DNA of 64,000 bases from Pelagomonas calceolata (Eukaryota): positions 5,084,001-5,148,000 of the forward strand of contig CAKKNE010000005.1 in NCBI GenBank assembly GCA_918797485.1, written 5' to 3'. The notes under the pieces were generated by a model. It made no database searches. It saw only the letters and a program-made list of their open reading frames with translations, and was not told the origin of the DNA. The stretch's first letter is position 1. Every line of letters begins with the position of its first letter. The position numbers were made by a program, and so were the translations under genes. This document shows positions 15,135 to 46,589 of this stretch, piece by piece.

Positions 15135-15946
15135 ATGACGCGCAGCGGCGGTGCCGGCCGGGCCAAGCCGCCCGCCGCCCGGGCCAAGCCGCCCAAGACG
15201 AAAACCAACGAGGGCCGCTGGACGGACGAGGAACACCGCAAGTTCCTCGAAGCGTACGAGGCGATGGTCGCGGTCGACCCGGCGCGCCGCCGCTGGCCGA
15301 ACGTGGCCGCGGCCGTCGGTGTGGAAATCAACGAGTGTCGAGCAGGCATTGCGTCGATGGCGCGGATTCGATGCGAACGCCGTCAAGGATTATCTACACA
15401 GGCGGCCGTCGGCACGCGCTCGACGACCCAATGCCGCTCCCACGCGCAAAAGTACTTCAATGTGCGGAAATCAAACGTTCGGGCGAGTAAGCCTAAGACG
15501 CCTCGTGCGAGGACGCCAAGCACTCTCGCGCTGCGTCGAGGCCGCCAGAATAGTAGATAATACCTCCAGGCCGGCCTGACGCACTGGTTCCGCACAGGTA
15601 CTTCAAAAAATTGCGAAGGGCGGCGAAGAAACGCAGGGCTGTGCCAGCCGCGCCGGCGCCGCCGGTCGTCGTCACGGACTCGGACAGCTCGCTGGACGTG
15701 TCGTCGACCTCGCGCTCGCCGCGCGCGGCCGCCGCGCCGCCGCAAGCCGACTACGCAGCCGTCCCCACGCCGCCCGTGCAGCCGCGCGAGGGCTCCTTCG
15801 ACGACAGCCTCTCGCCGACGAGCGCTTTGCTCCGCGAGCCCATCGTGGACGACCGGGCGCTGACCGTCGACGACGCGCCGCACCTGACGGGGCCGATCTC
15901 CTCCTGGGCCTCCCTCTCCATGCTCGACCCAGGCTTCACCGCCTGA
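15135..15946 (+). CDS. SHAQKYF-class single-repeat MYB transcription factor (exons 15135-15308, 15402-15451, 15598-15946; ~190 aa)
   Basis: GRWTDEEHRKFLEA...W..VAAAVGTRSTTQCRSHAQKYFKK is restored once two introner introns are removed; frames are consistent. Confidence 0.9.
15309..15401 (+). mobile_element. Introner intron 1 (GC-AG; element 15317-15401)
   Basis: TSD gcggccgt at 15309-15316 and 15402-15409; ends cggtgtggaaatcaa / ttatctacacag. Its 93 nt interrupt the MYB domain in frame. Confidence 0.85.
15452..15597 (+). mobile_element. Introner intron 2 (GT-AG; element 15460-15597)
   Basis: TSD gtacttca on both sides; ends atgtgcggaaatcaa / ggttccgcacag. Close sequence sibling of the element at 35862-36003. 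Confidence 0.92.
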
Positions 15947-15999: not shown

Positions 16000-16788
16000 C
16001 TACTCCGCACCACGCGCGCACCGCAGCGTGAACGACACGCGCTCCCCCGCGCGGCCCACGACGTCGCCGACGCGCGCGTTTGCGGCGTCGAGGTTCACAC
16101 AACACAAACCGATCGTGTCCGGAGCCGCCCCGATCTCGTGCGTGCACTCGGTATACGCCTCGCGGGAGAACGCCAGGAGCGACCGCCGTCGCAGCAGCAC
16201 CTCGCAGCGCGTCGCCGCCGCGCGGACGCCGATGTCGCTCGTTTTCAGGCGCTCCTTGAAGACGACGACGGCATCGGCGCCGCACGACAACGTGAACGTC
16301 CGATCGTCGTACGCGGGCCCGTCCGTGTGCGGCAGCACGTACGACTCCTTCGCGAAATCGTACGCGTTGACCAAAACGTGGTTCGGCGCCGGCCTTGACG
16401 ACGTGTCGCTCGCCGCGGCCGCGGCGCAGGCGTCGCGCGCCCACCGCGGGAGCGGCTCCGGCGCGAAGCTGGCCTCCCCCGCCGGGCCGCCCAGCCGTCT
16501 CAGTCGTCGGCCGCGCACAGTGACCCAGTCGTCGCCGCGCTTCGCCGCAGCCACGATCGCCGCCTCCTCGGCCTCGCTGATCCAGTCCGCCGCGTAGGCG
16601 ATGGTCGGCGGCGCGCCGGGCAGGGTTTGCAGCGGCGGTCGTTGTGTTGACGGGTCGAGGGCCGCGGTGGCGGCGTCGGGCGGCGGCCGGCGCTGCTGCT
16701 GTGGCTTGGGTGCCGGCTTTGCTACGGCTCCGCTCCTCGCTTTGCGCTTTTCGGCTCGCAGCATTGCTGCGAAATCGAGTGCAGACAT
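16000..16788 (-). CDS. AlkB-family 2OG-Fe(II) dioxygenase (ALKBH6-like)
   Basis: GRRL...GG, PNHVLVNAY, LPHTDGPAY (HxD), RRSLL, THEI, RVSFTLR. Confidence 0.85.
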   Translation of the reverse strand: MSALDFAAMLRAEKRKARSGAVAKPAPKPQQQRRPPPDAATAALDPSTQRPPLQTLPGAPPTIAYAADWISEAEEAAIVAAAKRGDDWVTVRGRRLRRLGGPAGEASFAPEPLPRWARDACAAAAASDTSSRPAPNHVLVNAYDFAKESYVLPHTDGPAYDDRTFTLSCGADAVVVFKERLKTSDIGVRAAATRCEVLLRRRSLLAFSREAYTECTHEIGAAPDTIGLCCVNLDAANARVGDVVGRAGERVSFTLRCARGAE

Positions 16789-17112: not shown

Positions 17113-18517
17113 ATGGCTGGCCGCGAGACGGTCGACGCGCACGGCTGGCACGCCCAGTAAGGCTCCCGTCTCAAAGACGAAGACATCGTACCACTGAGAA
17201 TCTCCTCGTAGGTATCACGGCCACCCTGTGCACGCCCTCGAGGTCGTCGAGCGGCAGCTGCGCGCGCAGGACAAGCCGAACCTCGTGTTCTTCGCCGGCG
17301 ACTCGAGCCTGGACAACAAATTCTGGTTCGAGAACCGCGCGAGGGCCGCGAACGGCTACGAGCACATTTTGCGGCCGCCTGAGAGCAAATTGGATGTGGC
17401 CTACCACGTCAACAAACTACTCGAGGCGCGGAATCCGCGCTGGGCCTGCGTCAACACGGCCGTCGAGGCGACGAGTCTGAATGATCGGGCGTTCGGCAGA
17501 CTGCTCGAGCAGGATCAGTTCCTGCGGGATTCGGTGCGCGAGACGGACGCCGTCGTGATCAGCGTCGGCGGGAACGATATCGCGCTCGCTCCCCTATTGT
17601 GCACGTGCTGCAACGTGGCGCCGCTACTCTGCATCGGAGGCCTCTGCGGCGACGCGATCGACCGCTGCGCCTGCGCGTGCCCGCCGGACGTCTACACGCC
17701 CTGCGGGGGCGCCACGGACTGCGGCTGCTGCCTGTGCGGGCTGCCCGGCTGCCTGACGGGGTTGTGTGGGTTCCCTCCGGGCCTGGGGTATTTCGTGGAC
17801 TTATTTGGAAATCGGGTGAGGGCGTACGCTTCAAATTTGGTGGCGAAGAAGAAGCCGCGCGTCGTCGTGATATGCATGATCTACTACCTGGATGTAAATG
17901 GGCGCGGCTCGTGGGCCGACGCGACCCTGCAGTTGCTCGGCTACAACTATGCGCCGGGCGTCTTGCAGCGGGGGATCCGGCAGGTCTATCGGAACGCGAC
18001 GAAGCGGATACGCCTGAATGGCGTTCCTGTTGTTGCTTTGCCGTTGTTCGAGGTCTTGGACGGCTCCGACACGCGCGACTACGTCCAGCGCGTCGAGCCG
18101 TCGCCGACCGGGGGCGCAAAGCTCGCAAAGGCCATCGTCGACGCCGTCCTCGACGCGACCGACGCGGAGGACCGGTCTAGGAATCCTATAACCACAAAAG
18201 AACAGTCTACAACCCTGGCGCCGGATACAGAGCGCTCCACCCCAGCTTCCTCGCCTGAAAAAGCGCCAGCGCCCGCCGCTCCTCCTCGCTCAGGTCGGGA
18301 TGCCAGACGTCCACGAGCAACACGTACGCGTGGCGGTTGGCGCGGCGGTTGTACGCCGTGTGGGGGAACGACGTGTCGACCAGCGTCGGCGGAAGCGGCC
18401 GGCCCGTCGCGTCGTGCCATTGAGCGACGGCCCGGAGACCGCCAACGGGCTCGGCGAGCGCATCATCGAGGTCCGCGAAGGCCAGCCCCGCGCCGTCACT
18501 CGGCAAGTCTAGCTTAA
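17113..18517 (+). CDS. SGNH/GDSL hydrolase-like protein with Cys-rich insert (exon 17113-17156, GT-AG intron 17157-17211, exon from 17212; 3' end uncertain)
   Basis: FFAGDSSLDN block I, VISVGGNDIA block III, and DYVQRVEPS..GG. The intron phase fits. The frame runs ~310 nt into the convergent gene. Confidence 0.75.
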
Positions 18518-19799
18518 AGTCGAGGCGAAACGCGAGCTCTTCGGCGTCCGGCGCCGGTGCCGCGTCGTCCTCGTGCAGTAGATCAAGCGGCACGTGGGCC
18601 GTGAGCACGTAGGTCGCCTTGTCGCTGTGGACGGGTAGCGCCGAGTCCGGCCGCTGACGACCGAAGCCGACGATCCGCGGGCCGTCCGGGACTTCAAGGG
18701 AGTCGAGCAGCGCCGTCGTGGCGGGAAAGCTCGCGGCGCGCCGCGCCGACGCCGCGGTCCGCACCTCGAAGAGCTCGAAATTGCGATACCCCGCCGCGCC
18801 GCCGTACAGGAAGCCGTCGCGCCAGGCGCCGCCCTCCGCCCGCAGCCGCGCGCGCTCGAAGAGCACCTCGCTCATCTCGTCGGCGATTTGCGGTGCCTGC
18901 AGTCGCAGCCCGAAGAGCCACTTCGGCGGCGCGTCCCAGACCGGATGGGCCGCGAGCCCGGGGTAGTGGCCGTCGCGCGCGACGACCTGGCCCGAGGAAA
19001 GTCTGCGGAGCGCCGGTCCCTGGTCGCGGCAATTCGCGCAGAACTCGTCAAAACGCGGCAGCGCCGCTTGCTGGCCGTCGTAGACCGCCTCGCATAGACC
19101 GCGCCAGAAGTCCGCGTCGTCGAGGGCGTCGCGGCGCGGCGTTGCGACCGCTGCCGCCGGCCGAATTGCGCCTCGACGAGTCGGCCGTTTAGTGGTTCCG
19201 GGCGCGAGGGCGCTCGCGCCGACGAGCGTGGCGGCGGCGACGAGGCGGCGCGCGGCGGCGGGCGTCGCGGCGCGCCCGCGGCCCTGGCGCCGGCGCGGAG
19301 CTGTCCGCGGCCGTAGGATGAGCGTCGCCGACGCGGCGCCGGACGCGTAGGCGGCGAGACCCGCGTAGGCGGGCACCGACGCTGCGCCAAGCGTGGCCAA
19401 GAGCACGAGCGCCGCCGGCACGAACCGGGACGGCCGCTGGTGGTGCGCGAGCCAGGTCCACGCCGCGCCGCCCATCAATCCGACCGTCAAGACACCGGCC
19501 GGCGCCGTCGCGCCGCGCAGCCGCAGCGCCACGACGCACACCTCGACGAGGCCCGCGCCGCGGTGCACCCAGAGCGGGTGGCCGAGGTCGCCCTCGACGA
19601 GTCGTAAGTAGGCGCGCGGCGCGACGCCTTGCACCGCAGCCAGGCTGAACACCGTCACGAGATACGCCTCGCACCACAAGACGTGATTCCAGTCGGCTTG
19701 GCTCGCAGCGATGGTAGCACTGAAGGCTGGGATGAGTACTAATGCAACGAAGAACAGCGGCCCGTCCCCGGCTCTTGGGAGCGGCTTGCTTCTCGCCAT
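18207..19799 (-). CDS. Aspartyl/asparaginyl beta-hydroxylase domain protein with N-terminal hydrophobic region (may be two adjacent genes)
   Basis: LPVHSD...LTAHVPL...VDTSFPHTAYN...VLLVDVWHPDLSEEERRAL matches the Asp_Arg_Hydrox pattern. Confidence 0.75.
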   Translation of the reverse strand: MARSKPLPRAGDGPLFFVALVLIPAFSATIAASQADWNHVLWCEAYLVTVFSLAAVQGVAPRAYLRLVEGDLGHPLWVHRGAGLVEVCVVALRLRGATAPAGVLTVGLMGGAAWTWLAHHQRPSRFVPAALVLLATLGAASVPAYAGLAAYASGAASATLILRPRTAPRRRQGRGRAATPAAARRLVAAATLVGASALAPGTTKRPTRRGAIRPAAAVATPRRDALDDADFWRGLCEAVYDGQQAALPRFDEFCANCRDQGPALRRLSSGQVVARDGHYPGLAAHPVWDAPPKWLFGLRLQAPQIADEMSEVLFERARLRAEGGAWRDGFLYGGAAGYRNFELFEVRTAASARRAASFPATTALLDSLEVPDGPRIVGFGRQRPDSALPVHSDKATYVLTAHVPLDLLHEDDAAPAPDAEELAFRLDFKLDLPSDGAGLAFADLDDALAEPVGGLRAVAQWHDATGRPLPPTLVDTSFPHTAYNRRANRHAYVLLVDVWHPDLSEEERRALALFQARKLGWSALYPAPGL

Positions 19800-29143: not shown

Positions 29144-29299
29144 ATATGTATATGATTATTCCGAGGATGCGGGTCGACGGGAAGGGGAGGGTAGGACCGC
29201 ACCTTAGCCGAAGGAGCCGCGCCGCCGCTTCGCCAGGCGCCGCGCGATCGCCTCCTTGTGGCGCGCGGCGCTGTCGGCGCGGCTCTGCGTCCGCGCCGC
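29144..29299. repeat. Direct-repeat copy A (~155 bp) of 33276-33429
   Basis: atatgtatatgattattccgaggatgcgggtcgacgggaaggggaggg...ttagccgaaggagccgcg...ctctgcgtccgcgccgc is near-identical at both sites. Confidence 0.95.
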
Positions 29300-29352
29300 C
29301 GCTTCCCGGTGTTTCTGCTACTTCAGAATAGTACTTACTCGAGTAACCCCGC

Positions 29353-33275: not shown

Positions 33276-33429
33276 ATATGTATATGATTATTCCGAGGAT
33301 GCGGGTCGACGGGAAGGGGAGGGACCACGCACCTTAGCCGAAGGAGCCGCGCCGCCGCTTCGCCAGGCGCCGCGCAATCGCCTCCTTGTGGCGCGCGGCG
33401 CTATCGGCGCGGCTCTGCGTCCGCGCCGC
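33276..33429. repeat. Direct-repeat copy B: last codons, stop and 3' flank of the receptor gene
   Basis: See 29144-29299. Confidence 0.95.
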
Positions 33430-36400
33430 AGCCGCGCCGCGTTCCGCGGCGAGGAGCGTCTCGTAGGTCGCGTCGTCGTCGCCCGGAGCAGCTGCGGCCG
33501 CGGTTTCCTGGGGCGCGACCTTCCGTTCCTTTCGTTTCGGGAAGAGCCGCATGAGCAGCGAGACGCGGCGGCCGGTGTTGCGCACGGAGAAGTTCCTGTG
33601 CAGCGCCTTCAGCGCCCGGCTGCTGCTGATCTTTGCCGTTCGCAGCATGTGGCGCTGGGACCGCTGCTTCATGAGTTTGGAATGCGTCATCGTGTGATGG
33701 GCCTCGACTTTATGTAGCTTCTCGCTCGAGACGGCCCGGAAGATCTGGTAGAAGCGTTGTTGGGCCGCGGACGCCTTCCTGACTTCGGTATCGTGTATTT
33801 GTATCTCTACCAGAATGGAGACCTGTGCATGAATCAACCGGTGAGGCGTCGATGGCGTGGAGGTCATGATTGAGCCGTGGTGGAGACGCGGCGCGACAAT
33901 TTGATTTATGCACTGATCGAGACGTCGTTGCTCGACGGCTTGAACTCGTAGACGGCGTGTAGGTTAAAGGGGACCTGGCGCCGACAGATCTTGTTCTTAA
34001 GTTTTTTTAGCGTGAAGAGCGGGCTTGCCTATGCGCAAATCAATCAATGAGTCGGGTGCCGAGGAACCGGCACCGACGCCATCGAGCTGGCGTCGCGTCG
34101 ACGGCGCGGAGGCCACGATTCAGCAGACGCGCCGCAATGCTTTGGTTTGGGCACTGGGGCTCGCATCGAACGCCGCCTTGACGTCGCACATGGCCTGGGC
34201 CCCGGGGCACACGACCGTCGCGCGCAGCGCGTCGCGCACGAGCGCGCTGACGGGCTGCCACCCGGCGCCCTCCTCAGCCTGATGTTTCTTGGCAATTTCC
34301 GACTTCATCGCCTCGACCATGCGCTCGGCAGTCTTAATGGAGCCCTCCTCACTCACGACCTGTGCGCAAATCAACCAGTGAGTCGGCAATTCTTCACATG
34401 AGAATTTGATTTATGCACTGCTCGCGACGACCACAGCGCCCTCCACCTGCTTGGCGACGTCGGAGAGCGCCGCCGTCAGTGCAGGTAGGCAGGTAGCAGC
34501 GAAGATGCGGAGCAGGGGGGGCAGCACCGTCTGGTCGAGCGCGAGCTTGCCCTTGACGAGGATCTCGGCGTCGGCCTTGAGCGTCGCCTCAGAGGCGCAC
34601 GATTTCATCTGTGTGTGCAAACGAACCGGTCGCTTTCGAGAAGAGAGGGCTGAATCATTGATATAGGGCACTGGCCTCGACGGCAGCCACAACAGCCTCC
34701 GTGAGGTTGGTCCCGGCGCCGCCGCGCCAGATCAATCGCTGCTGAGGCTGTGGGTCGCTTCTCTCCGGGTTGAGCTCTTTGACCTGCCTCAGCACGTCAA
34801 GCAGATCCGGCGACAGCAGCTCCTCGGTGATGTAGTCTTCGAGCTCGTCCGCGCGCGCCTGCGCCTCGCACCGTAGCCAGGCCCAACGCGTCGGAACGAA
34901 GTCCTTGGCCTTTGCCCATTCCTCGTCGTCAACCTCGTCGTCGGCATCGTCGCCAGCTGCGTCGGGCGCAGGGCCGCGCGCGAGCTTGAACCGAGCCGGC
35001 CGTGGCGGCGCCGCGGCTTCGTCGACGTTGGCGGCTGCGTCAGGCGCTGACGGCGCGTCGGCCTCCGGCGCGGGCGCGAGCTTAAAGCGCGCTGGGCGCT
35101 GTGGCGCCCCGGCCGGCGCAGCGGCGACGGCTGCGCCTGGCGCGAGGAAGGCCGAGGCTCGTTCCACGCGGCGCTGCGCATCGCTTTTCGCCCGGGCGGC
35201 GACTCTGCGGTACCAGTGGCGGATGCGGTGCTGCTCGTGCGCTTCGATAAGCGGCTCGCGCCAGAATGTGTGCAAGGAACAAATTTGGCTCCGAAATATA
35301 CCCCACTGCGTATCAGCCTGTGTGAAACTCAACCACTGAGTCGGGTGCAACACCGCCCGCCATCGAGGAGACATTGCGTTGATGGCGTCGAGATCGACGC
35401 GATGATTCGAGACCAAGGCTCCGTGAAATTCAATTTATGCACTGGTATCAGCATTTGTGTCGCTCCAGGCGAAGTCCCCGAGATAGCCGTCGACGATGGC
35501 TTCGAAGGTCGCACTCTCGAGCAGGTGCCTGCGTAGGAAAACACCAACGTATATACCGAACGATTGTCAGCAAATCGAAACAAGTCGAAGGCTTTATCTT
35601 CTGCACCGGAAAGTGCTCGCCGCCCTCCGTGCACAACGTCTCGAACTCGAATCGGAAATTCTCCGTGCGCAGGCGGCGCCTGTGCGCAAATCAATCAGTG
35701 AGTTGGGTGCACGTCGATGGCGAGACGCGCCGCGACGATTTGATGTATGCGCTGGGCGGCGCCGAATGCGCGCGCAGAGCGTCCGGATCGGCTTCTCGTA
35801 GGCGTAGCGGCGCACCGCCAGGACCAGCACGAAAACCTGGGCCGCGACGAGCGCACCCGACCTATGCGGAAATCAAACGTTCGGGTGAATAAGCCCAAGA
35901 CGCCTCGTGCGAGGACGACAAGCACTCTCGTGCTGCATCAAGGCTGCCAGAATAATAAATAATACCTCCAGGCCGGCCTGACGCACTGTTGATTTCCGCA
36001 CTGCACCCGACACGATGCGGAGCTGCTCGAGCTTCAGTGTCTTCTGCGTGCAGCAGAGCGCCATGAAGAACGTCGACGTGACGAAGAACCAGGACGTGTG
36101 CGCGACCGTGTTCACCGCTGGCGACTGGAAAGGCTCGCCGTCGGCCTGTGTGGAAATCAAATTTTACCGCGCATTCGTGCTGAATCATCCGACGCACTGG
36201 TTGATTTCCACACAGCCGTCGACGATGGCCAGCGCATAGAGCAGCGAGATGACGAACGAGAGCACGAGTCGCATGCGCCGCGCCCCGGGCAGACAGACGA
36301 GGAGGAAGCCGCTCAGCGAAGTGCGCACGACCTGTGCATAAATCAAATTCTTGCGGCGCGTCTCCGCCACTGCTGAATCATGGCCTCAACGCCATCGACG

Positions 36401-39400
36401 CGACGCCAGCTCCATGGCGTGGCGGTGTGGGTCCTACACCACTCGATTCAGTCATCAAGGTCGCGTTGTCGCATCAAGGTCGCGTTGTCGCATCAAGGTC
36501 GCGTTGTCGCCGAGAAACGACTTAGTGAAGAATGATCGGGTGCATGCGACTCACTGCTTGATTTTCACACAGCGCACGACCATGGAGAGCGGCTCGGCGA
36601 ACCAGGCGCCCTTGCGGTAGGGCCGGACGAGGGGCGTCGGCCGCAGGATGTCGCTGAGCGCCTCGCAGTCGACGCAGCTGCCGAACGTCGCGCGCCGCTG
36701 GCGGATTTGCTCGAGGAGGAGCACGGCGAAGAAGAGGCCTGTGTGGAAATCAACCGGTGGGTCGGGTGCACCCGACAATTCTTCAATCAGTCGTTTCTTG
36801 GCGCTGACGCGGCCGTCCTGGCTCGATCGAGCGGCGAGGAATCGACATCGCCACGCCATCGAGCAGGCGGCGCGTCGATGGCGTGGAGGACGACGCGACG
36901 GTTCAGGACGAACGCGCCGTAAAATTTTGATTTCCACACAGGAAGAGGCCCGGCAGGCCGACGACGTAGATGAGGCAACACAGGATGGCGTAAGCCCGGT
37001 AGGCCTGGTACCTGTGCGAATATCAACCAGTGTGTCGGGTGCACCATCGAGCAGGCGTCGCGTCGATGGCGTAGAGGTCGACGCGGCGATTCAGGACGAA
37101 CGCGCAGTGAATTTGATTTTCACACAGCCTGGTACCGCTTGGACGACGCCCGGATGGTGTAGTCCCGCGCGAGGTAGAGCTCGCGCTCCGTCGCCGACGT
37201 CCGGAAGCCGCGCTCGTCGGCCGTGTGGTACTCGACGCCGTCCAGGTGGAAGAACTCGAAGAGGACCGAGCAGACCGTCGCGTGGCACATGATGAGGAGC
37301 ACGGCGAGCCGCCGGCAGGCGCGCCGCTTCGCGTCGGGGTCGCGCGAGCAGAGCGACACGAGCGCGACGACGAGGACGAGGTAGAGGGGCAGGAGCGTCG
37401 CCATGAGCAGCGTGTGGTAGTACGACCAGCCCGCGCAGGGCGTCGGCAGCCAGGCGGCGAGGTCGAAGGTCACGAGCGCGTAGATGCGCATGAGCCACTT
37501 GAACGCCCCCGGGTAGTCGACGTCCTCGACGCTCGAGAAGCGCACGAGGACCGCGAGCGAGTGCCAGATCGCGAGCGCGCACGTGCTCGTCAGGAAGCTC
37601 CAGACCTCGCGCTTCGCCGCGCGCCAGACGCGCACCGCGCGCCAGCCCTCGCACGAGAGGGCCGCCGGCCAGCGGCAGCCGCAGAGCGCCCCGAGCGACG
37701 CCGCCGCGGACCACGCGACCGCGCCGACGAGCGCCAGGGCGACGATCATGGCGACGGCGTAGACGACCCGCAGGAAGACCGACGGCCTGGCGCCGCACCG
37801 CTTGCACCGGCGCAGGACGGGCTCGAGGTAGTAGCCGTCGTCGCAGAGCTGGCAGAGCGGCCCGCGGTGGTGCTTGGCGCAGAGCGCGTTGCCGCTCGAG
37901 TTGCCGCTGGCGCAGCCCTCGTTGCGCTTGCCTGTGTGGAAATCAACCAGTGAGTTAGGTTAGACCTTTGTGAACCTCCACGCCATCGAGCCGACGCGGC
38001 CACGGGGACAACGTCGCGTCGATGGCCTGGAAATTCCACGCCATCGAGCAGACGCAGCTACAGAGACAAGTGGGGCGCCCGAAATTCGATTTCCACACAG
38101 GCGCCTGCAGCGGTAGATGGCCGGCGTGTCCATCGAGAAGCGGTAGAAGCCCGCGCGCACGCCCCAGGGGCTGCCGAGCGTCGAGCCCTGCGGGCACGTC
38201 GCCGACCAGGGGCAGCCGTGGCACGTCCGGTTGTCGTAGTAGTAGTCGCGCTCGCACACGTCGCAGGCCGCGGCGCCCGGCGCGCTCCAGCGCCCGGCGC
38301 CCTCGGTGCGGCAGCTCTCGCAGAAGGTCTGGCCGGCGCTCCGCGCGAAGCGCCCCGCCGCGCACGCCTCGCACGCCGCGCGGCCCGACTCGGGCTGGTT
38401 CCGGCCGGCCTCGCACGCGAGGCAGACGCGCGCGCCGGCGGCGCTGACCTTGCCCGCGTCGCAGGCGTCGCACTGGACGTTCAGCGGGCTGGCCGCCGTC
38501 AGCTCGGCGGCGCGGCCCGCCTCGCAGGCCTCGCAGCGCTGCTGCCCGGGCGCGGACTGGTAGCGGCCGTTCGGGCACTTGGCGCACGCCGTCGCGCCGT
38601 CGGCGTCGCTGTACGTGCCCGGCGCGCACGGCAGGCACGTCGCGCGGTCGGGCGAGTACGAGCCCGCGGGGCACGTCGCGCAGTAGAGGCCCAGCGGCGA
38701 GTAGCTGCCGGGGTCGCAGTCGACGCAGGCGATGGTCCCGCCGGGCAGCGGGCTCTCGCGCTGGCCCCGGGCGCAGCGCGAGCAGCTCTGCGAGCCCGTC
38801 GCCGCGAACTTGCCCGCCTCGCAGGGGAGGCAGCTGCCCGAGCCGGGCGCCGTGTTGAAGGTGTCGAGCCCGCACGGCCGGCAGCTCTCCTGCCGGTGGT
38901 CGGGCTGGAAGTAGCCCGCGGCGCAGGGCGTGCAGGGCGCGACGCCGCCCGCGCCGTACGTGCCGGCGCGGCAGTAGCGGTCGGACTCCCGCGTCGGCGC
39001 GAGCGTCGGGTCCGACGACGGCGCCGGCGTCGGCCGCGGCGTCGGCCGCGGCGACGGCGCGGGCGTCGGCCGCCGCGACGGCAGGGGCGTCGTGGGGCCC
39101 GGCGTGGGGCCCGGCGACGGGCCCGGCGTCGGCCGCGGCGAGGGCGCGGGCGTCGGCGCGACGGAGGGTGCCGGCGTGGGCTTCGGCGACGGCTTCGGCG
39201 TCGGCGCGGGCGTCGGGTTTGGCGTCGGCTTCGCTGTTGGTCTTGGCGTCGGCGCGAAGACCGGCGCGGCCGTGGGATCGCCGGGCACGGGCGTCGGGTC
39301 CGGCGTCGGTTTCGGGGTCGGGCGTGGCGAGGGCGAGGGCGTCGGCTTCGGCGTGGGTACCGGCGACGGTCGGGGCGTCGGGGTCGGGGTCGGCCGCGCG

Positions 39401-42400
39401 CTGGGCGCCGGCGTCGGCCGCGACGACGGGGGCGCGCTGGGCGCCGGCGTCGGCCGGACGGACGGCGCGGGCGTCGGCCGGGGCGACGGCTGGGCGCTCG
39501 GGCGAGGCGTCGGCGGCGGCGACGGCGCCGGCGACGGCTGGGGCGTCGGCGCCGGGACGAAGGCGTAGGCCGCGCCCGCGTTGTCGGCGAGCTCGTCCTC
39601 GTTGGGCGCGCCGGAGACGACGCGGTCGCCGGACAGCGCCACCGAGTAGCCGAGGACGTTCCCGGCCGCGGCGTCGCCGGAGGTGACCTCGTCGTACTGG
39701 GCCCACGTCGTGCCGTCCGTGCGGAAGAGGTAGACCGAGCCCGCGGCCCCGTCGTCGCCCATGGCCCCGACGGCGAGGCCGTCGCCGGACAGGGAAAGAG
39801 AGTAGCCGAACAGGTCGCCCGCGGCCGCGTCGGCCGCCGCGAGCTTCGCCGTTTCGGTCCACGTCGCCGTGTCGTACAGGTAGACGGCGCCCGCGTTGCT
39901 GCCGTCGCCGCGGGCCCCGATCGCGACGGTGCTGCCCTCGATCGCCACGGAGTAGCCGAACATGTCGCCCGTCGCGGCGTCGGCGGCCGTGAGCTTGGCC
40001 AGCTGGGCGCCGTCGCTCGCGCGGAAGACGTAGACCGCGCCCACGGCGCCGACCGGATTGTTCTGCCCGTCCGACCCGGCGTTTCCGTCGCCGTAGGCCC
40101 CGGTCACGACGGTGGCGCCGTCCGTCGCCACGGAGATGCCGAACATGTCGTAGGCGGCGGCGTCGGTGGCCTTGAGCTTCGCGGTCTGGGCCCACGTCGC
40201 GCCGTTGTCGCTCGTCGCGAAGAGGTAGACGGCCCCGGACTGGAGGCCGCCGCCGCCGTCGTCGTGGGGCGCCCCGACGGCGACGACGGTGCCGGCGGCG
40301 GCCACGGCGGAGCCGAAGCGCGTGTCCGGCCCCGCGTCGGCCGCCGTCAGCGTCGCGAGGTGCGTCCACGACGCGCCGTTGTCCGCCGTGCGGAAGACGA
40401 TGGCGGCGTTGGCGTAGTCGCACACGCCCATGATCCACCAGGGCGGGCACCCGGCGCCGACGACGAGGCGGTCGCCGGCCAGCGCCACGGACCAGCCGAA
40501 GAGGTACCCGGCGCCGCACGAGCAGCCCGAGCAGTCGCAGCCGTAGGTGCCCTCGAGCGTCGCGCAGGCGTAGCCGGAGTTGAACAAGGTGTCGCACGAG
40601 TATTCGAAACAGGTCGCCGCGCAGGCCCCGTCGGCGATCGCCGGGTGCGCCACCTTGGCCACCTGGCCGTAGGTGACGCCGCCGTCGCTCGTCCGGAAGA
40701 CGTAGACCGCGCCGGCGTAGGTCTTGTGCCTCGGCGCCCCGAGCGCGACGAGGTCGCCGGCGGCGGCCACGGAGACGCCGAACCAGTCGCTCGCGGCGCC
40801 GTCGCTCGCCAGCATCTTGTCCGTCTCCGCGTGGAGCGGCCAGGCGGTCGGCGCGACGGTCGGCGCGGGCGACGAGGCGGGGAGGGCGAAGATGTAGGCC
40901 GAGCCGGAGTTGGAGCCGGCGTCGTCGTCCCAGTAGGCCCCGACCACGACCTTTTGGCCGTCGGTCGCCACGGAGTAGCCGAAGTAGTCGCCCGCGGCGG
41001 CGTCGGCGGCCGTCAGCTTGGCCACCTGGCCGTACGTGGCGCCGCCGTCGGTCGTGCGGAAGACGTAGGCCGCGCCCGCGTTGCTGGCAATACTGTCGTC
41101 ATAGAAGGCCCCAGCCACGACGACATCACCGGAGATCGCCACACGATAGATAGAAACGCCATCGCTAGTCACGAGCTTCGCAACTTGGGACCAAGTTCCG
41201 CCGTCGTCGGTCGTGCGGAAGATGTATACGGAACCATCACCACGGATTGCTACGGTGTCGCCGTCGATCGCCACGGACTCGCCGAAGGAGTCGTACGTCG
41301 CGGCGTCGTCAGCTGTCAGCTTGGCCACCTGGCCATACGTGGCGCCGCCGTCGCTTGTGCGAAAGACGTAAACCGAGCCCCAGCCAGAACCACCATAAAA
41401 ATTCGTTGCATCGGCACCGACTACGATGGTGTCGCCGTCGATGGCCACGGAGAGGCCGAAGTCGTCGCCCGACGAGGCGTCGCTTGCAATCAGCTTGGCC
41501 ACCTGGTCGTACGTGGTGCCGCCGTCGGTCGTGCGGAAGACGTAAACTGCGCCCGAGGCGGAGCCGGCATCATCATCGCCGTAGGCCCCGACCACGACGG
41601 TGTTGCCGTCGATCGCCACGGAGTAGCCGAAGTAGTCGCTCGCCGCGGCGTCGGCGGCCGTCAGCTTGGCCACCTGGGCGTAGGTGGCGCCGCCGTCGCT
41701 CGTGATGAAGACGTAGAGTGCGCCGCCGGTGCCAGCTTTGTAGGCACCGACCACGACGGTGTCCCCGTCGATCGCCACGGAGTAGCCGAAGTAGTCGCCC
41801 GACGCGGCGTCGGAGGCCGTCAGCTTGGCCACTTCGACATATGTGGCGCCGCCGTCGCTCGTGCGGTAGACGTAGACCGCGCCTCTTTGGCTGTGTTCGT
41901 AGTAGGCACCAACCACGACGGTGTCCCCGTCGACCGCCACGGAGCCGCCGAAGCGGTCGCCCGACGCGGCGTCGCCGGCCACGAGCTTCGCGAGCTGCGC
42001 GTAGTCGGTCGACGGCAGGGCGAAGACGTAGGCCGAGCCCGAGTCGGAGCCGGTGTCGTCGTCTTTCCAGGCCCCGACCACGACAGTTCCATCGCTGATC
42101 GCCACGGACATGCCGAACTCGTCGCCCGACGCGGCGTCGGCGGCCGTCAGCTTGGCCACCTGGCCGTACGTGGCGCCGCCGTCGGTTGTGCGGAGGACGT
42201 AGGCGGCTTCCCCGTAGCGGGTCCCGATCACAACGGTATCCCCGTCGATCGCCACGGACCAACCGAACCCGTTGCTCGCCGTGGCGTCGTCGGCCGTCAG
42301 CTTGGCCACCCGGCCGTAGGTGGCGCCGCCGTCGGTCGTGAGGAAGACGTAGGCCGAGCCCGAGTTGGAGCCGCCGTCGTCGTCGTACGGGGACCCAATC

Positions 42401-43359
42401 ACGACGGTGTCTCCGTCGATGGCCACTGAGAAGCCAGACTCGTCGCTAGCAGCGGCGTCGGCGGCCGTCAGCTTGGCCACCTGGCCGTACGTCGCGCCGC
42501 CATCGCTCGTGCGGAAGACATAGGCCGAGCCCGATTTGGAGCCGGCGTCGTCGTCTTTGAATGCACCAACCACGACGGTGCCACCGTCGATGGCCACGGA
42601 CCAGCCGAACTCGTCGTACGACGCGGCGTCGCTTGCAGTCAACTTGGCCACCTGGCTGTACGTGGCGCCGCCGTCGCTCGTGCGGAAGACGTAGGCTGCG
42701 CCTGAGCCGCCGTTACCCCACTGGTTTGCGCCGACCACGACGGTGCTGCCATCGATCGCCACGGAGAAGCCGAAGCGATCGCCCACCGCGGCGTCGGAAG
42801 CTGTCAGCTTGGCCACTTCGACGTATGTGGCGCCGCCGTCGCTCGTGCGGAAGACGTAGACTGAGCCCGAACTGGAGCCGCCGTCGTCGTCTTGCCTGGC
42901 CCCGACCACGACGGTGTCACCGTTGATGGCCACGGACCAGCCGAAGTAGTCGTCCGCCGCGGCGTCGGAGGCCATGAGCTTGGCCAGCTGGACGCCATCG
43001 CTCGCACGTAGGATGTAGGCTACTCCTGGGCCGGCCCCGTAGGCCCCGATCACGACGGTGTCACCGTCGATCGCCAAGGAGAAGCCGAAGTAATCGCCCG
43101 ACGCGGCGTCGCCGGCCACGAGCTTAGCGAGCTGCGCGTAGTCGGCGGTTGTCAGCCGCCGCTCCCGGGCGACCACCAGCGCGCGCGACGTCGCTCCCAT
43201 CGCGCCGGGCGGCGCGAGCGAGTCGTGTGCGGCGGCGTTGGTCGCCGCGAGGAGCTTGGGGAGTGGCTGCTTAGGCAGCCCCGCCGGCCCGGCGCCGGCC
43301 GGCAGCGCCGCCAGCGCGCTCAGCACGAGGACCCGCGCGCGGGCGCCGGCCGGGACCAT
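33334..43359 (-). CDS. Receptor-like membrane protein, ~2783 aa, 14 exons: signal peptide, 21 FG-GAP blades, Pro/Thr stalk, Cys-rich repeats, multi-pass TM domain, cytoplasmic RelA/SpoT-like nucleotidyltransferase domain
   Basis: Exons 43359-38109, 37931-37136, 37011-36950, 36738-36581, 36331-36224, 36145-36012, 35861-35763, 35679-35617, 35528-35453, 35317-34682, 34608-34429, 34359-34165, 34028-33924, 33822-33334. All 13 junctions are phase-compatible (8352 nt total). Confidence 0.85.
33823..33923 (-). mobile_element. Introner intron 6 (GT-AG; element 33823-33915)
   Basis: TSD atggagac / atcgagac; ends ctgtgcatgaatcaa / ttgatttatgcactg. Confidence 0.9.
34029..34164 (-). mobile_element. Introner intron 7 (GC-AG; element 34029-34156)
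   Basis: TSD gggcttgc / gggctcgc; ends ctatgcgcaaatcaa / ttggtttgggcactg. Confidence 0.88.
34360..34428 (-). mobile_element. Introner intron 8 (GT-AG; element 34360-34420)
   Basis: TSD ctcacgac / ctcgcgac; ends ctgtgcgcaaatcaa / ttgatttatgcactg. Confidence 0.9.
34609..34681 (-). mobile_element. Introner intron 9, degenerate (GT-AG; element ~34609-34673)
   Basis: Ends ctgtgtgtgcaaacgaacc / ttgatatagggcactg; TSD largely eroded. A donor 8 nt outside the TIR gives the required phase-0 join. Confidence 0.65.
35318..35452 (-). mobile_element. Introner intron 10 (GC-AG; element 35318-35444)
   Basis: Perfect TSD gtatcagc; ends ctgtgtgaaactcaa / ttcaatttatgcactg. Confidence 0.9.
35529..35616 (-). 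mobile_element. Introner intron 11, degenerate (GC-AG; element ~35529-35608)
   Basis: TSD gcaggtgc / gaaagtgc (6/8); eroded TIRs ctgcgtaggaaaaca / ttatcttctgcaccg. Removal restores the frame (GGE-HLLES). Confidence 0.65.
35680..35762 (-). mobile_element. Introner intron 12 (GC-AG; element 35680-35754)
   Basis: Perfect TSD ggcggcgc; ends ctgtgcgcaaatcaa / ttgatgtatgcgctg. Confidence 0.88.
35862..36011 (-). mobile_element. Introner intron 13 (GT-AG; element 35862-36003)
   Basis: Perfect TSD cacccgac; ends ctatgcggaaatcaa / ttgatttccgcactg. Sibling of 15460-15597. Confidence 0.92.
36146..36223 (-). mobile_element. Introner intron 14 (GT-AG; element 36146-36215)
   Basis: TSD ccgtcggc / ccgtcgac; perfect 15-bp TIR. 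Confidence 0.93.
36332..36580 (-). mobile_element. Introner intron 15 (GT-AG; element 36332-36572) with internal 19-bp x3 tandem repeat
   Basis: Perfect TSD cgcacgac; atcaaggtcgcgttgtcgc x3 at 36454-36510. Confidence 0.93.
36739..36949 (-). mobile_element. Introner intron 16 (GC-AG; element 36739-36941)
   Basis: Perfect TSD gaagaggc and perfect 15-bp TIR. Confidence 0.95.
37012..37135 (-). mobile_element. Introner intron 17 (GT-AG; element 37012-37127)
   Basis: Perfect TSD cctggtac; ends ctgtgcgaatatcaa / ttgattttcacacag. Confidence 0.93.
37932..38108 (-). mobile_element. Introner intron 18 (GC-AG; element 37932-38100)
   Basis: TSD gcgcttgc / gcgcctgc; ends ctgtgtggaaatcaa / tcgatttccacacag. 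Confidence 0.92.
38990..39555 (-). repeat. Coding Pro/Thr-rich PT-repeat stalk
   Basis: PTPAPS / PTPRPT / PTPKPT units. Confidence 0.9.
39560..43145 (-). repeat. Coding FG-GAP repeat array, 3 x 7 blades
   Basis: ~55-aa unit QVAKLTA.DAA.GD.FG.SVAIDGDTVVVGA..DDD.GS.SGSAYVF; 21 units counted in three groups of seven. Confidence 0.9.
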
Positions 43360-43593
43360 CCTCGCGCAGCTGCAGCCCCCCCTCCCGAGCCGCAGTTCGC
43401 GTGTGGGTCGTTCACTGCTGCTCCGCTTGCTGCTACCCCCCCTCCGCTTCATGAATTCAAGGGCGCGAAAGAAGCGCGGGGACGCCGCAGGCACGGGTAC
43501 CTACGCATCCCCGGAGCCAAGGGGCCAATGAATGAGGTTGTCTCGCGCGCGCGGCCGCGAGACGCCGTCGCCCTAGGATCGGACAGAGAAAGC

Positions 43594-44799
43594 TTACAAC
43601 TCCCCCGCCGCCGGCGCATCGTGCCCGCGCCGCATCTTCCCGAAGAGCAGCGTGAGGTTGATCCGTCGGTTCTCGTAGCCCTCCCGGAACCGGAACGAGT
43701 CCGTCTTGTGGTACAGCGCGCTGTCGAAGACGACGATCCGGTTCTGGCGGTAGGGGATCGTGACGTTCTCGTAGTCCGTCGACCGCAGCAGCTCGTCCGC
43801 GAACTCGGCGCCGCGCTGGTTGTACTCCTCGGCCGTCGCGGTCGCGGGCGGCTTCGCCGTGTAGACCACGAGGCCGCCGCTCGCCGGGTCCAGGTTGGCG
43901 TCGTCCGGCGTCAGCCAGATGTTCAGGTTCACGGCGGCCTCGTCGGCGTGCACGCTAATGCCCTCGTACTGCGAATCGTACTTGTAGCACCAGAGGTAGG
44001 CCAGCGGGTGGTCGCCCAGCGTCTCGGGCATGGCCCGTCGCAGCGCGTCGGCGAGCTCCAGCAGCGCGCGCGCGTGCAAGCCGTCCTCGACGATGGCGCC
44101 GACGTACCCGCCGAACACGGCCGGCATCTTGGTTTCGAAGAAGACCGTCGATTCCAACAATAGCGAGCGGATCTGGTCCAGTGCGGCGGGCGTCAACGCA
44201 TCGTCGATTGCGAAGGGGCCCGCCCGGTACCGCGCGTCGGCGTCCGCGAAGGATTTCGCGTTGAGCATGGGGGTCACTGGCTGCGGGTCGGGCACGTGGA
44301 TGGCCCGGTTGTAAAAGTCGCCGATGTCCGCCGTGTCCTCGGGCCGGAACGCCCAGAGACCATTGGTCCTTTGTAGTTGGTCCAAAGGAGGAATGCGGCG
44401 CCGCACGCGCTGGAACCGTTCTATAACGGCATGTTCGTTCAGATAGGCGGCTATTGAGGCGTTGCGCGCTGCGACGTACTGCAGCTGCTCGACGTCGTGC
44501 TGGAGCTTGTAGGCCGACGAGTAGTGCGCCCCGGCGCCCTTGGCGACGAGCGCGTCGCGCAGCGGCAGCTTCCCGTCGAGCGGCCCGGGCTGCCGCGCCG
44601 TCCGCGAGAAGTGGTCGCGCAGCGCGGCGCACAGGCCGTCGAGGTCGTTTCGCGCAAAGTAGCGCGACACGTCCTCGGACGTCACGGGCTGGAGCTGCGG
44701 CCGCGTCGCGTTCCGCTGCTTGCGCTTGTGGGCGCGTCTGACCCAGCCGCTGCCCGTCGCGGACGCGAAGCAGGCCACGAGGAGTGTCTTGCGGATCAT
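43594..44799 (-). CDS. Signal-peptide-bearing 2OG-Fe(II) oxygenase (prolyl-hydroxylase-like fold)
   Basis: WCYKYD..GISVHADEAAVNLNIWLTPDDAN..SGGLVVY...IPYRQNR.VVFDSALYHKTD...RRINLTLLFG (HxD...H...R). Confidence 0.8.
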   Translation of the reverse strand: MIRKTLLVACFASATGSGWVRRAHKRKQRNATRPQLQPVTSEDVSRYFARNDLDGLCAALRDHFSRTARQPGPLDGKLPLRDALVAKGAGAHYSSAYKLQHDVEQLQYVAARNASIAAYLNEHAVIERFQRVRRRIPPLDQLQRTNGLWAFRPEDTADIGDFYNRAIHVPDPQPVTPMLNAKSFADADARYRAGPFAIDDALTPAALDQIRSLLLESTVFFETKMPAVFGGYVGAIVEDGLHARALLELADALRRAMPETLGDHPLAYLWCYKYDSQYEGISVHADEAAVNLNIWLTPDDANLDPASGGLVVYTAKPPATATAEEYNQRGAEFADELLRSTDYENVTIPYRQNRIVVFDSALYHKTDSFRFREGYENRRINLTLLFGKMRRGHDAPAAGEL

Positions 44800-45206
44800 C
44801 GCATTGCTGCTCCTATCAGGCAGCTCTACGCTGTCGTGCGCCCAAATCGCCGGCAAATGCAGGCAGCACCAAGTCTTGGTGCATGAACTATCAGGCAGCT
44901 GCAGCACGCTGTCGTGCGCCCGCAAAAAAATGCCAGCAAATGCAAAAAGCACTTGGTTCGAGACAAATGCAGCGCGAACGGCCAGGAACAGACGCGTGCG
45001 CAAAAGTTGAAGCCGCCTTGCTAGCGGCATGTAAGACACTAGCGCTGCTGCGAGCTTACGTACACGTCGGGAGGTTGACGAGCGTAGCGTCCGCATCCAG
45101 GTGATAAGCTTGGTTTGACGCGTGCTTGGCTGCCTCCACCCGCCCGCGCAGCGAGGCGACAAAAGCAGCCCTTGCTGACACTCGAGCACATTGCTCCAGG
45201 GGCAAG

Positions 45207-46589
45207 ATGCGTCGCCTCGCCGTCGCGCTCGCATTGCAGACCACAACCGCCCTCCAGACACCAACAAAAAAACCACTGCCGCTAAGGATCGACGGCGAAT
45301 GGTACGACGCGCGCCACTACGCCGAGACGACGCACGCCGGCGGCCGGTGGCTCGTCGAGTACGCCCGCGGGCGCGACGTGTCCTTCCTCTTCAAGTCCAT
45401 CCATTCTTTGAACGAGGAGAAGGCGCGGAACGCGCTCCGGAAGCTGCCGAAGATCGACGAGCCCCGCGACGCGGCGCCGTACGGCTTCGCGCTGGGCGAG
45501 GAACCGGACGAGGTCGAGATCGACTCGCCGTTACGGAAGGAGCTCCGCGCGCTCGTCCGACGGAGGTTCGGCACGGACCCCGACGCGGCGAAGGCGACGC
45601 CTGGGCAATGGCTGCGCATCGGCCTCTTCGGCGCGCTGACGGCGTCGGCGTGGCTGCGGTGGCTGCAGGGTTCCGTCCTCGCGACGCTCGTCCTGCCCTT
45701 CGCGGCCTGGCTGCTCGTGGCCCACACCGCGCACGACGCCACCCACGGTAGTCTCTCGAAGCGGCCCTGGGTGAACTACTGGCTCCAGTTCACGGCGCAC
45801 CCGCTCTTCTTCAACGTCTTCGTGTGGATCCCGCAGCACCTGCACAGCCACCACCAGTTCACGAACGAGCACGACTTCGACGTGGACCTGCACCACTTCG
45901 CGCCGGCGGCGCTGTCGCCCGAGACGCCGATTAACGACAAGTTCAACGAGGCCTGGACCTTCTGCTGGAAGGGGTGTTTGACGACGCTCGGCACGTCGCT
46001 GCTCCAGCCGCTGCGGACGCTGCTCGACAAGCCGACGCCGAACTTCGACGTGAACATCACGCCCGTGCCCGACGACGTTTCCAAAAAACAGCTCTGGCTC
46101 TCCGTGGCGCCGACGATCTTTTGCCTCGTGTATCCGCTGCTGGCGTTCGGCGTCGGAAGGGGGAATTGGGGCTTGGCGGTACTCGAGAGCCTGTACCCGT
46201 TCGTGGGGGCGTCGCTGATCTGGACGGCGATGACGCAGACGAGCCACGTCCAGGACGACTGCCACCAGCCCGTCGCCGAGGACGACTGCTGGACCGCGCG
46301 GCAGATCGCGCACTCCTACGACTACTCGGTGCACAATCCAAGAGAGCGGGAGCTCGTTGCCATGCTGACCGCGGGCCTCAACATGCAGTCCCTGCACCAC
46401 GCGATACCGACTGTGGCGCAATCGCGCCTGGCGGGCCTCTACGAGGAGTACGCCGAGATCGCGGCGCGCCACGGCGCGGCGCCGCGGACGTCGCGCAACA
46501 TCCTGACGGCGTCGCGCGAGCTCCTCGAGTACCTCTTCGAGAACAACGCGCCCGTGCGCGCCGCGGAGGCGGTGCCCGTGGCGAGGTAA
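45207..46589 (+). CDS. Cytochrome-b5-fused front-end-type fatty acid desaturase, possibly plastid/ER targeted
   Basis: IDGEWYD...HAGG b5 domain; His boxes HDATH, HLHSHH, QSLHH; N-terminal signal peptide. Confidence 0.88.
   Translation: MRRLAVALALQTTTALQTPTKKPLPLRIDGEWYDARHYAETTHAGGRWLVEYARGRDVSFLFKSIHSLNEEKARNALRKLPKIDEPRDAAPYGFALGEEPDEVEIDSPLRKELRALVRRRFGTDPDAAKATPGQWLRIGLFGALTASAWLRWLQGSVLATLVLPFAAWLLVAHTAHDATHGSLSKRPWVNYWLQFTAHPLFFNVFVWIPQHLHSHHQFTNEHDFDVDLHHFAPAALSPETPINDKFNEAWTFCWKGCLTTLGTSLLQPLRTLLDKPTPNFDVNITPVPDDVSKKQLWLSVAPTIFCLVYPLLAFGVGRGNWGLAVLESLYPFVGASLIWTAMTQTSHVQDDCHQPVAEDDCWTARQIAHSYDYSVHNPRERELVAMLTAGLNMQSLHHAIPTVAQSRLAGLYEEYAEIAARHGAAPRTSRNILTASRELLEYLFENNAPVRAAEAVPVAR

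Follow-up and report, generated by a model that had tools for sequence, protein, structure and literature searches.

The window analysed here is a stretch of 64,000 nucleotides (nt) from the genome of Pelagomonas calceolata (contig CAKKNE010000005.1 of assembly GCA_918797485.1, positions 5,084,001 to 5,148,000 of the forward strand), to which all coordinates below refer. Its minus strand carries, at 33334..43359, a gene of 14 exons coding for a protein of 2783 amino acids (aa), in which a large ectodomain and a membrane module precede a C-terminal domain assigned, from structural models of relatives, to the RelA/SpoT synthetases. The gene is real, expressed and conserved. Removal of 13 introns leaves 8352 nt, read from 43359 to 33334, which specify the 2783 aa and a single stop, as proposed in an initial annotation made from the letters alone. 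Raw polyA reads from one sample, sequenced in two runs, contain all 13 splice joints, including those preceding the last exons, at 8-168 (X21) and 7-73 (X24) reads per joint with a sense-consistent mate; the joints are seen again in one assembled contig from each of two older runs, presumed to be RNA (X1 and X5). A chance open frame was ruled out by a control with random joint phases, in which the frame stayed open in 2 of 2000 models, and retained introns or a pseudogene were ruled out by the RNA joints and by the ratio of nonsynonymous to synonymous substitution rates (dN/dS) given below. The six motifs quoted in the initial annotation lie at aa 2527, 2562, 2594, 2606, 2625 and 2643, corresponding to about 34344-33736.

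The RNA evidence is made up of partial pieces, none of which, contig or read, covers the gene end to end. The longest listed contig (X11, 4022 nt) has its upstream end at 38996; a piece of this length probably runs through to the 3' end and connects cysteine repeats, membrane module and synthetase domain. The FG-GAP part is tiled by separate RNA pieces, with same-strand reads in most bins; RNA coverage is almost absent at 43159-43532, and the first 200 nt of the gene are barely covered. Since the genomic frame is unbroken over 1846 codons, and the same order of parts is found in the relatives L010, P0200 and P0203, the FG-GAP part is taken to be joined to the remainder. In the metagenomic relative L010, about 75% identical, the last 1600 codons form one intron-free frame; upstream, leader and FG-GAP region are as in the studied gene, but the frame breaks there. 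The breaks, located between 4392 and 4458, near 4838 and near 5371, may be assembly errors, small introns or decay.

The protein starts with a hydrophobic stretch predicted to be a signal peptide (start codon included, aa 1 to about 24, 43288..43359), which is not followed, at the likely cleavage site, by a plastid-type Phe; start and leader are the same in L010. The ectodomain proper (aa ~70-1268, 39556..43152; Pfam PF14312, 987.7 bits) is composed of 21 FG-GAP_2 stretches with Asp-box/BNR-like motifs, interrupted near aa 910-950 by a Cys-rich insert, and may fold into about three 7-bladed propellers. A Pro/Thr/Ser-rich stalk (aa 1269-1460, 38980..39555), recognised by its sequence, leads to a region of GCC2/ephrin-receptor-like cysteine repeats followed by a juxtamembrane disulfide domain (aa 1461-1800, 37783..38979; Pfam PF07699, E 4e-18), which contains 39 Cys, gives a weak Pfam match to DUF7630 and spans intron 1.

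The membrane module (aa 1801-2190, exons 2-7, 35801..37782) was delimited by mapping an AlphaFold2 model that covers 883 residues of the relative P0007, about 76% identical overall (32 sequences, mean predicted local distance difference test score, pLDDT, 76.4), in which nine long hydrophobic helices are found; hydropathy by itself gives seven peaks over the same span. With the N-terminus outside and nine crossings, the C-terminus should lie inside. Of the predicted inner loops, those after helices 1, 3, 5 and 9 show an abundance of Lys/Arg but that after helix 7 does not, and in the outer loop after helix 4 basic and acidic residues are equal in number. Because loop charges are mixed in this way, we infer the topology rather than read it directly, and the C-terminal domain is predicted to be cytosolic, in agreement with the multi-pass arrangement first suggested. 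In the model there is no break between helix 9 and the helical coupling region that follows it, which contains an Ala/Pro/acidic linker and is likewise predicted to be cytosolic (aa 2191-2480, 34552..35800; dN/dS 0.11-0.33). The synthetase-fold domain follows (aa 2481-2660, exons 11-14, 33706..34551), identified through profiles and the fold of relatives, and the protein ends with a basic tail, poorly conserved in sequence (aa 2661-2783 and stop, 33334..33705).

Fold and active site of the C-terminal domain

An AlphaFold2 model was computed for the domain of the relative P0003, 94% identical over this region (62 sequences, mean pLDDT 80.2), and a Foldseek search returned RelP and RelQ as best matches (E 7e-8). 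In a VIA-align comparison against 48,161 chains, ranks 1 to 11 were all occupied by synthetase chains of the RelA/SpoT homologue (RSH) type, with Z between 9.8 and 13.1, comprising Rel, RelP, SaEAS (Z 12.4), SpoT, RelQ, CapRel, Tas1 and RelA. The best match was Rel (8acu, Z 13.1, root-mean-square deviation 3.0, 136 aligned residues), while the pol-beta/TdT family scored lower (Z 8.8 or less); the 883-aa model of P0007 produced a ranking in the same order. A profile-profile comparison with an alignment of eight bacterial RSH sequences gave a probability of 75 (E 2.5e-5) and aligned the motifs in register, the narrow profile A2 reaching a probability of 36 only, and 4 of 30 Atlas matches fell into clusters with 34% RelA_SpoT members (score 0.93).

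Against this assignment it must be considered that both models were computed on relatives, P0003 and part of P0007, and not on the studied protein, and that sequence searches are far less telling. The Pfam model RelA_SpoT (PF04607), whose use had been suggested as a check, gave no match in single exons or in close relatives equivalent to the spliced protein, and matched only 2 of 75 distant relatives, at E 0.003, below the curated cut-off. Searches of PDB sequences by phmmer with P0003 and with the profiles A2, A3 and A4 returned nothing significant, and a sequence-profile search reached RelQ at E 0.12 only, the narrow profile finding nothing. On the evidence of the modelled folds, nevertheless, the RelA/SpoT synthetase assignment appears to be right, Foldseek, VIA-align and the profile-profile match all bearing out what the motif series had suggested. 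The accompanying term 'nucleotidyltransferase' needs correction. Solved members of the fold transfer not a nucleotide but pyrophosphate, from ATP to the 3'-OH of GTP/GDP, ATP/ADP or tRNA (PMC11782079), for which reason 'pyrophosphokinase' is the better word.

With bacterial RSH synthetases the domain shares the fold (Z 12-13), the order of motifs, the metal-binding Asp/Glu, the first Lys, the His of the third motif and E-I-Q. It differs from them in sequence (12-18% identity), in being fused to a eukaryotic multi-pass surface protein and in the absence of hydrolase, TGS or ACT domains; specifically, Pfam found no HD hydrolase domain either in the scanned exons or in the relatives covering the cytosolic part. 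Matches in BFVD were phage RelA/SpoT proteins, which at 11-15% identity are no nearer than those of bacteria, and scans with the A2 pattern, weak tests in both cases, revealed no relative among 71 candidate stretches of viral contigs or 390 of prokaryotic genomes. Nuclear-encoded enzymes of the RSH fold are known in eukaryotes as the plastid RSH1-4 of plants and algae, including a diatom RSH (PMC10107265, PMC6881373). These are long plastid enzymes, whereas the studied protein has an ectodomain and nine predicted helices and goes undetected by Pfam RelA_SpoT.

Residues were counted in 172 domain sequences covering at least 120 of the 178 profile positions, reduced to 82 at 85% identity; the profile behind these counts was built from many of the sequences counted. 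The studied copy keeps K2530, R2534, D2564, R2567, K2597, N2598, H2610, E2627, Q2629, Y2646 and R2650. In the family, D2564, R2567 and N2598 are invariant (82/82 each), as is E2627 (81/81), and conservation is nearly complete for K2530 (78/81), R2534 (80/82), Q2629 (76/80), Y2646 (74/77) and R2650 (76/77). D2564, E2627 and Q2629 align with the Asp and the E-I-Q of RelA, i.e. the metal-binding Asp and the catalytic Glu-x-Gln. In RelP, ATP is bound by R78, K80, S84, K88, R91, R112 and H190, Mg by D107 and E174, and guanine is gripped by Y151 of the G-loop (PMC5794853). As far as these described contacts go, D2564, E2627 and K2530 correspond to D107, E174 and K80, and in the profile alignment the family keeps the equivalents of K80, K88, D107, E174 and H190. 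The second Arg of the family lies at D+3 (R2567 in the studied copy) and not at D+5 as in RelP, the spacing being that of D121/R124 in SaEAS, whose residues D121, R124, K154, E182 and Q184 (PMC12691689) are counterparts of the catalytic residues of the family.

The domain is also under purifying selection. Its dN/dS, calculated according to Nei-Gojobori, was 0.094-0.106 in three pairwise comparisons, the lowest or joint-lowest of seven regions, with dS near 0.95 against the studied gene.

The case for an active synthetase is opposed by several features, some of the family and some of this copy. Throughout the family the adenine-stacking R78 has no equivalent, Ser, Ala or Cys being found in its place; an Arg present family-wide at the position of S84 may stand in for it, and no equivalent of R91 was recognised in the profile alignment. 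The G-loop is two residues shorter in the same alignment, with Pro in the Tyr column and Phe one place later (position 2607 is Phe in 34, Pro in 24 and Tyr in 17 of the 82 domains). Because R78 is absent and the shorter G-loop has no Tyr in register, the acceptor cannot be read from the sequence. The studied copy deviates further, not having the full RelP set of ATP-binding residues. Ala2538 takes the place of K88, a Lys in 78/82 family members, and Gln2643 that of H190, a His in 73/77, both sites being ATP contacts; the residue after Gln2643 is again Gln, where 51/77 members have Glu. Finally, a low dN/dS is compatible also with a conserved non-catalytic domain. The absence of a Lys after the first motif had already been pointed out. 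It is confirmed for this copy, although as a subclade-specific change and not as a trait of the family, 78 of 82 relatives having kept the Lys.

Taken over the whole alignment, the ATP donor site is largely kept and the acceptor site remodelled, family-wide. The family looks catalytic, while activity of the studied copy is about an even bet. The changes at the K88 and H190 sites raise the alternative that this copy is a pseudo-enzyme, which would bind a nucleotide or partners as a scaffold, or regulate active paralogues with intact Lys and His. Both substitutions are confined to its subclade, and they are common to the studied copy and its closest relatives; the further change is of Glu to Gln. 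Being present in relatives 25% diverged, the changes are old and stable. Yet neither of the metal-binding acids has been lost, nor have the other basic residues, Gln could still form a hydrogen bond with the ribose, and K2540, two residues on, might compensate for the missing Lys. A pseudo-enzyme is for these reasons regarded as rather unlikely, and reduced activity in a working synthetase is the reading followed here.

A second alternative concerns the acceptor. CapRel (Z 11.3) and FaRel2 share with the proposed receptor the fold and the design of an RSH enzyme gated by a sensor, but they belong to soluble toxin-antitoxin systems whose antitoxin is a pseudo-zinc-finger, of which none was seen here, no targeted test having been made. 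The toxSAS enzymes that pyrophosphorylate tRNA have been described as relying on an N-terminal basic tRNA anchor and a small positive patch at the acceptor site, with a pseudo-zinc-finger domain (pZFD) antitoxin (PMC11782079). The domain might likewise pyrophosphorylate an RNA 3' end (tRNA CCA, as FaRel2/CapRel do) or some other non-nucleotide acceptor, and so bring about translation shut-off or a cell-suicide defence in place of a diffusible messenger. In the structural comparison, however, CapRel ranked under Rel, RelP, SaEAS and RelQ, and FaRel2 reached Z 6.7 only, so that we consider this improbable. Transcripts of the gene occur in several culture runs, which is uninformative on a suicide role.

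The exported and toxic alarmone synthetases SaEAS (8vx3, Z 12.4) and Tas1/Apk1 (6ox6, Z 10.4) also have the fold in common with the studied domain; in SaEAS the D-x-x-R spacing, a Lys and E-x-Q are described at matching places (PMC12691689). The domain contains the D-x-x-R, Lys and E-x-Q of the Apk1/SaEAS set, but His where their third motif has Asn, and their Z does not exceed that of RelP or Rel. They also are bacterial enzymes, secreted or injected, whereas the domain here is predicted to face the cytosol of its own cell.

Relatives and exchangeable ectodomains

A profile built from six sequences was searched against 1.84 billion representatives and detected 168 proteins at E <= 0.001. Of these 150 were listed, 75 of which were scanned with Pfam, most short matches being fragments. 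Among the matches listed, those carrying a species name are all from pelagophytes, most are unnamed, and no animal member was found; clusters of look-alikes in the Atlas include diatom and bacterial ones. In a FastTree phylogeny of the 82 domains, built without an outgroup, the studied gene falls within a clade of nine members (support 1.0).

At least 500 residues precede the domain in 23 of the 82 representatives. A nine-helix module profile, which was built from 13 family members and is not independent for those, matches 15 of these 23. Different ectodomains are found above this module: FG-GAP with cysteine repeats in the studied gene, in P0203 and in P0200 (the P. calceolata protein CAH0364320.1); Venus flytrap with cysteine repeats in P0044 and P0072; a beta-helix in P0065 (Chrysophaeum taylorii) and P0170 (Pelagophyceae CCMP2097); cysteine repeats in P0086 (Aureococcus), P0050 and P0102. 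The architecture, which it had been proposed to look for in stramenopile proteomes, is therefore present in other pelagophytes. The other eight include single-pass flytrap receptors, some with a 5'-nucleotidase domain and some lacking it, leucine-rich repeat (LRR) proteins and a Roco-like GTPase-kinase-ankyrin protein. Within the family, P0141, P0149/P0172 and P0152 combine the domain either with a 5'-nucleotidase and Venus-flytrap single-pass receptor, one of them with EF-hands, or with the Roco-like GTPase-kinase-ankyrin arrangement. P0218, a paralogue known from a single sequence that may be an assembly product, contains an additional RelA/SpoT domain, different in type (Pfam E 7.9e-5, residues ~712-860), between helices 3 and 4, in a loop predicted to be cytosolic. 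Judged by these domain combinations, the family seems to behave like a receptor output module.

The overall plan resembles that of the cysteine repeat modular proteins (CRMPs) of apicomplexans and ciliates, which in apicomplexans are described as triggering exocytosis on contact (PMC9670195). An ectodomain and cysteine repeats are common to both, as are nine helices (in Toxoplasma and Plasmodium) and a cytosolic C-terminus, the last two by prediction in the studied protein; CRMPs have MAR/Kringle domains rather than FG-GAP, and the accessible text of the source mentions no enzyme domain (PMC9670195). The flow of information could accordingly be the reverse of that proposed here, the protein serving in adhesion, exocytosis or transport and its RelA/SpoT-fold domain acting as a cytosolic nucleotide sensor that regulates the nine-helix module. 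Signal peptide, binding domains, cysteine repeats, helices and C-terminus would suit such a protein as well as they suit apicomplexan CRMPs (PMC9670195), and the module has no convincing structural match: the best, Hrd1 at Z 7.3, was within noise, for an 883-aa model whose length precludes a fair test, and the 25 of 31 Pfam families listed include none of the TRP type. The domain occurs, however, also without the membrane module, in single-pass flytrap receptors and in soluble LRR/ankyrin proteins, as expected of a portable output domain, and its catalytic acids are invariant across the family. A reversed flow is on this account considered very unlikely, and the domain is treated in what follows as the output end of a receptor.

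Introner introns and neighbourhood of the gene

The introns of the gene are introner elements of the pelagophyte kind, as seen from their target-site duplications (TSD), terminal inverted repeats (TIR), precise splicing, multiple copies and presence/absence variation. Pelagophyte introners are described as short elements bounded by TIR, flanked by an 8-bp TSD and acting as introns (PMC9860276, PMC9481584). All introns of the gene allow a placement in which the donor is GT or GC and the acceptor AG. The TSD matches at 7-8 of 8 positions in 11 of the 13 introns, at 6/8 in one and at 3/8 in one (34681-34609), and a TIR of 9-14/14 is found in 10 of 13; the initial definition of all 13 by TIR and TSD holds for most of them, but not for all. 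In the 11 introns with the better TSD, its first two bases act as the splice donor. Here the donor is drawn from the TSD and mRNA length does not change, while in the example described from Aureococcus sp. 12 nt are added (PMC9860276).

All introns were located through their RNA joints, on the minus strand. Those of the GC-AG type are intron 1 (37932..38108, 177 nt), 3 (36739..36949, 211 nt), 7 (35680..35762, 83 nt), 8 (35529..35616, 88 nt), 9 (35318..35452, 135 nt) and 12 (34029..34164, 136 nt). GT-AG introns are intron 2 (37012..37135, 124 nt, for which an equivalent GC-AG placement is possible), 4 (36332..36580, 249 nt), 5 (36146..36223, 78 nt), 6 (35862..36011, 150 nt), 10 (34609..34681, 73 nt), 11 (34360..34428, 69 nt) and 13 (33823..33923, 101 nt). 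Introns 11, 12 and 13 fall within the synthetase domain. Intron 8 is decayed (TSD 6/8, TIR 7/14), and intron 10, with a TSD of 3/8, is probably an older decayed insertion.

A number of 13 is far in excess of the mean of 0.45 introns per gene reported for P. calceolata. All 13 lie within the 3' 4.3 kb (33823-38108) and none in the 5.25-kb first exon, and a loose-pattern scan of the window detected only five other introner ends, near 15317, 15460, 23294, 23685 and 24243. The relatives L009 and L010 lack all 13 introns; L011 (470-563) and L012 (159-480) contain one introner each, inserted elsewhere (near aa 2502 and 2563); and introns 12 and 13 are missing from L012, although it is 98.7% identical over aa 2552-2783. 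Several predicted proteins of relatives (P0005, P0006, P0013-P0016) read through into introner-like sequence. The gene looks like a hot spot for introners, which are present in some and absent from others of its near-identical alleles.

At 29144-29302, 4 kb downstream and on the same strand, lies a 159-bp copy (95.6% identical) of the last 27 codons of the gene, its stop and the start of the 3' untranslated region, without the remainder of the gene. Two long open frames of the window, 1076-9307 (plus strand, 2743 aa) and 60050-63979 (minus strand, 1309 aa), have no Pfam match at E 0.001. The upstream neighbour (43594-45234, minus strand, 546 aa), also without a Pfam match, resembles by eye a 2-oxoglutarate/Fe oxygenase, and two more oxygenase-type genes are found at 16000-16788 and 18207-19799 (Pfam 2OG-FeII_Oxy_2, weak, and Asp_Arg_Hydrox). 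It is conceivable that window oxygenases hydroxylate Pro or Asp/Asn residues of the stalk and repeats.

Possible function and significance

We tentatively propose, at somewhat less than even confidence, that the protein is a receptor-enzyme which, on engagement from outside, moves pyrophosphate from ATP to a purine nucleotide and makes a messenger of the (p)ppApp/(p)ppGpp type. FG-GAP and Asp-box propellers have a role in the binding of glycans and surfaces, and a glycan or surface would probably engage those of the ectodomain. The effect of binding or tension would travel along stalk and cysteine repeats and shift the nine-helix bundle, the shift being transmitted by the last helix, continuing into the cytosolic region that holds the enzyme domain; the latter would thereby be released to produce a (p)ppApp- or (p)ppGpp-type nucleotide. 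The acceptor would be a free purine nucleotide, with a slight preference for adenosine in view of the D-x-x-R spacing, which agrees with that of SaEAS. The studied copy may be active, though probably slower than the paralogues having both Lys and His.

The enzyme fold is known; no description was found of its use as the inner end of a eukaryotic multi-pass surface protein. The literature search, which turned up no eukaryotic membrane receptor with this domain, extended to papers outside subscription and not to supplements, so that a mention in the supplement of a survey is possible. The words 'transmembrane', 'pelagophyte' and 'Aureococcus' were not found in the accessible text of the diatom RSH paper, and RelA_SpoT is listed as an N-terminal domain of fungal NOD-like receptors (NLRs). 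The name given to the public P. calceolata paralogue refers to its cysteine repeats only; this naming, the failure of Pfam to detect the domain and the splitting of the gene by introners explain why the family was overlooked. The studied protein is likely a member of a eukaryotic receptor family that has so far escaped recognition.

More doubtful is the wider proposal that pelagophytes and other marine protists possess a class of receptor alarmone synthetases, in which a nine-helix module and a RelA/SpoT-fold output are combined with interchangeable ectodomains, and contact or ligand would be converted into cytosolic (p)ppApp/(p)ppGpp independently of the plastid. Such proteins would be analogous to receptor kinases and receptor cyclases. 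Alarmone synthesis in eukaryotes has been described as a plastid matter, and animals as having the hydrolase MESH1 and detectable (p)ppGpp with no obvious synthetase (PMC10107265); since no animal member was found, the family leaves the animal case unanswered. The domain is about 200 aa long, and the studied copy and the paralogues with intact Lys and His form a natural test pair. If the proposal is true, some eukaryotes use alarmone chemistry outside the plastid, wired to cues from outside the cell.

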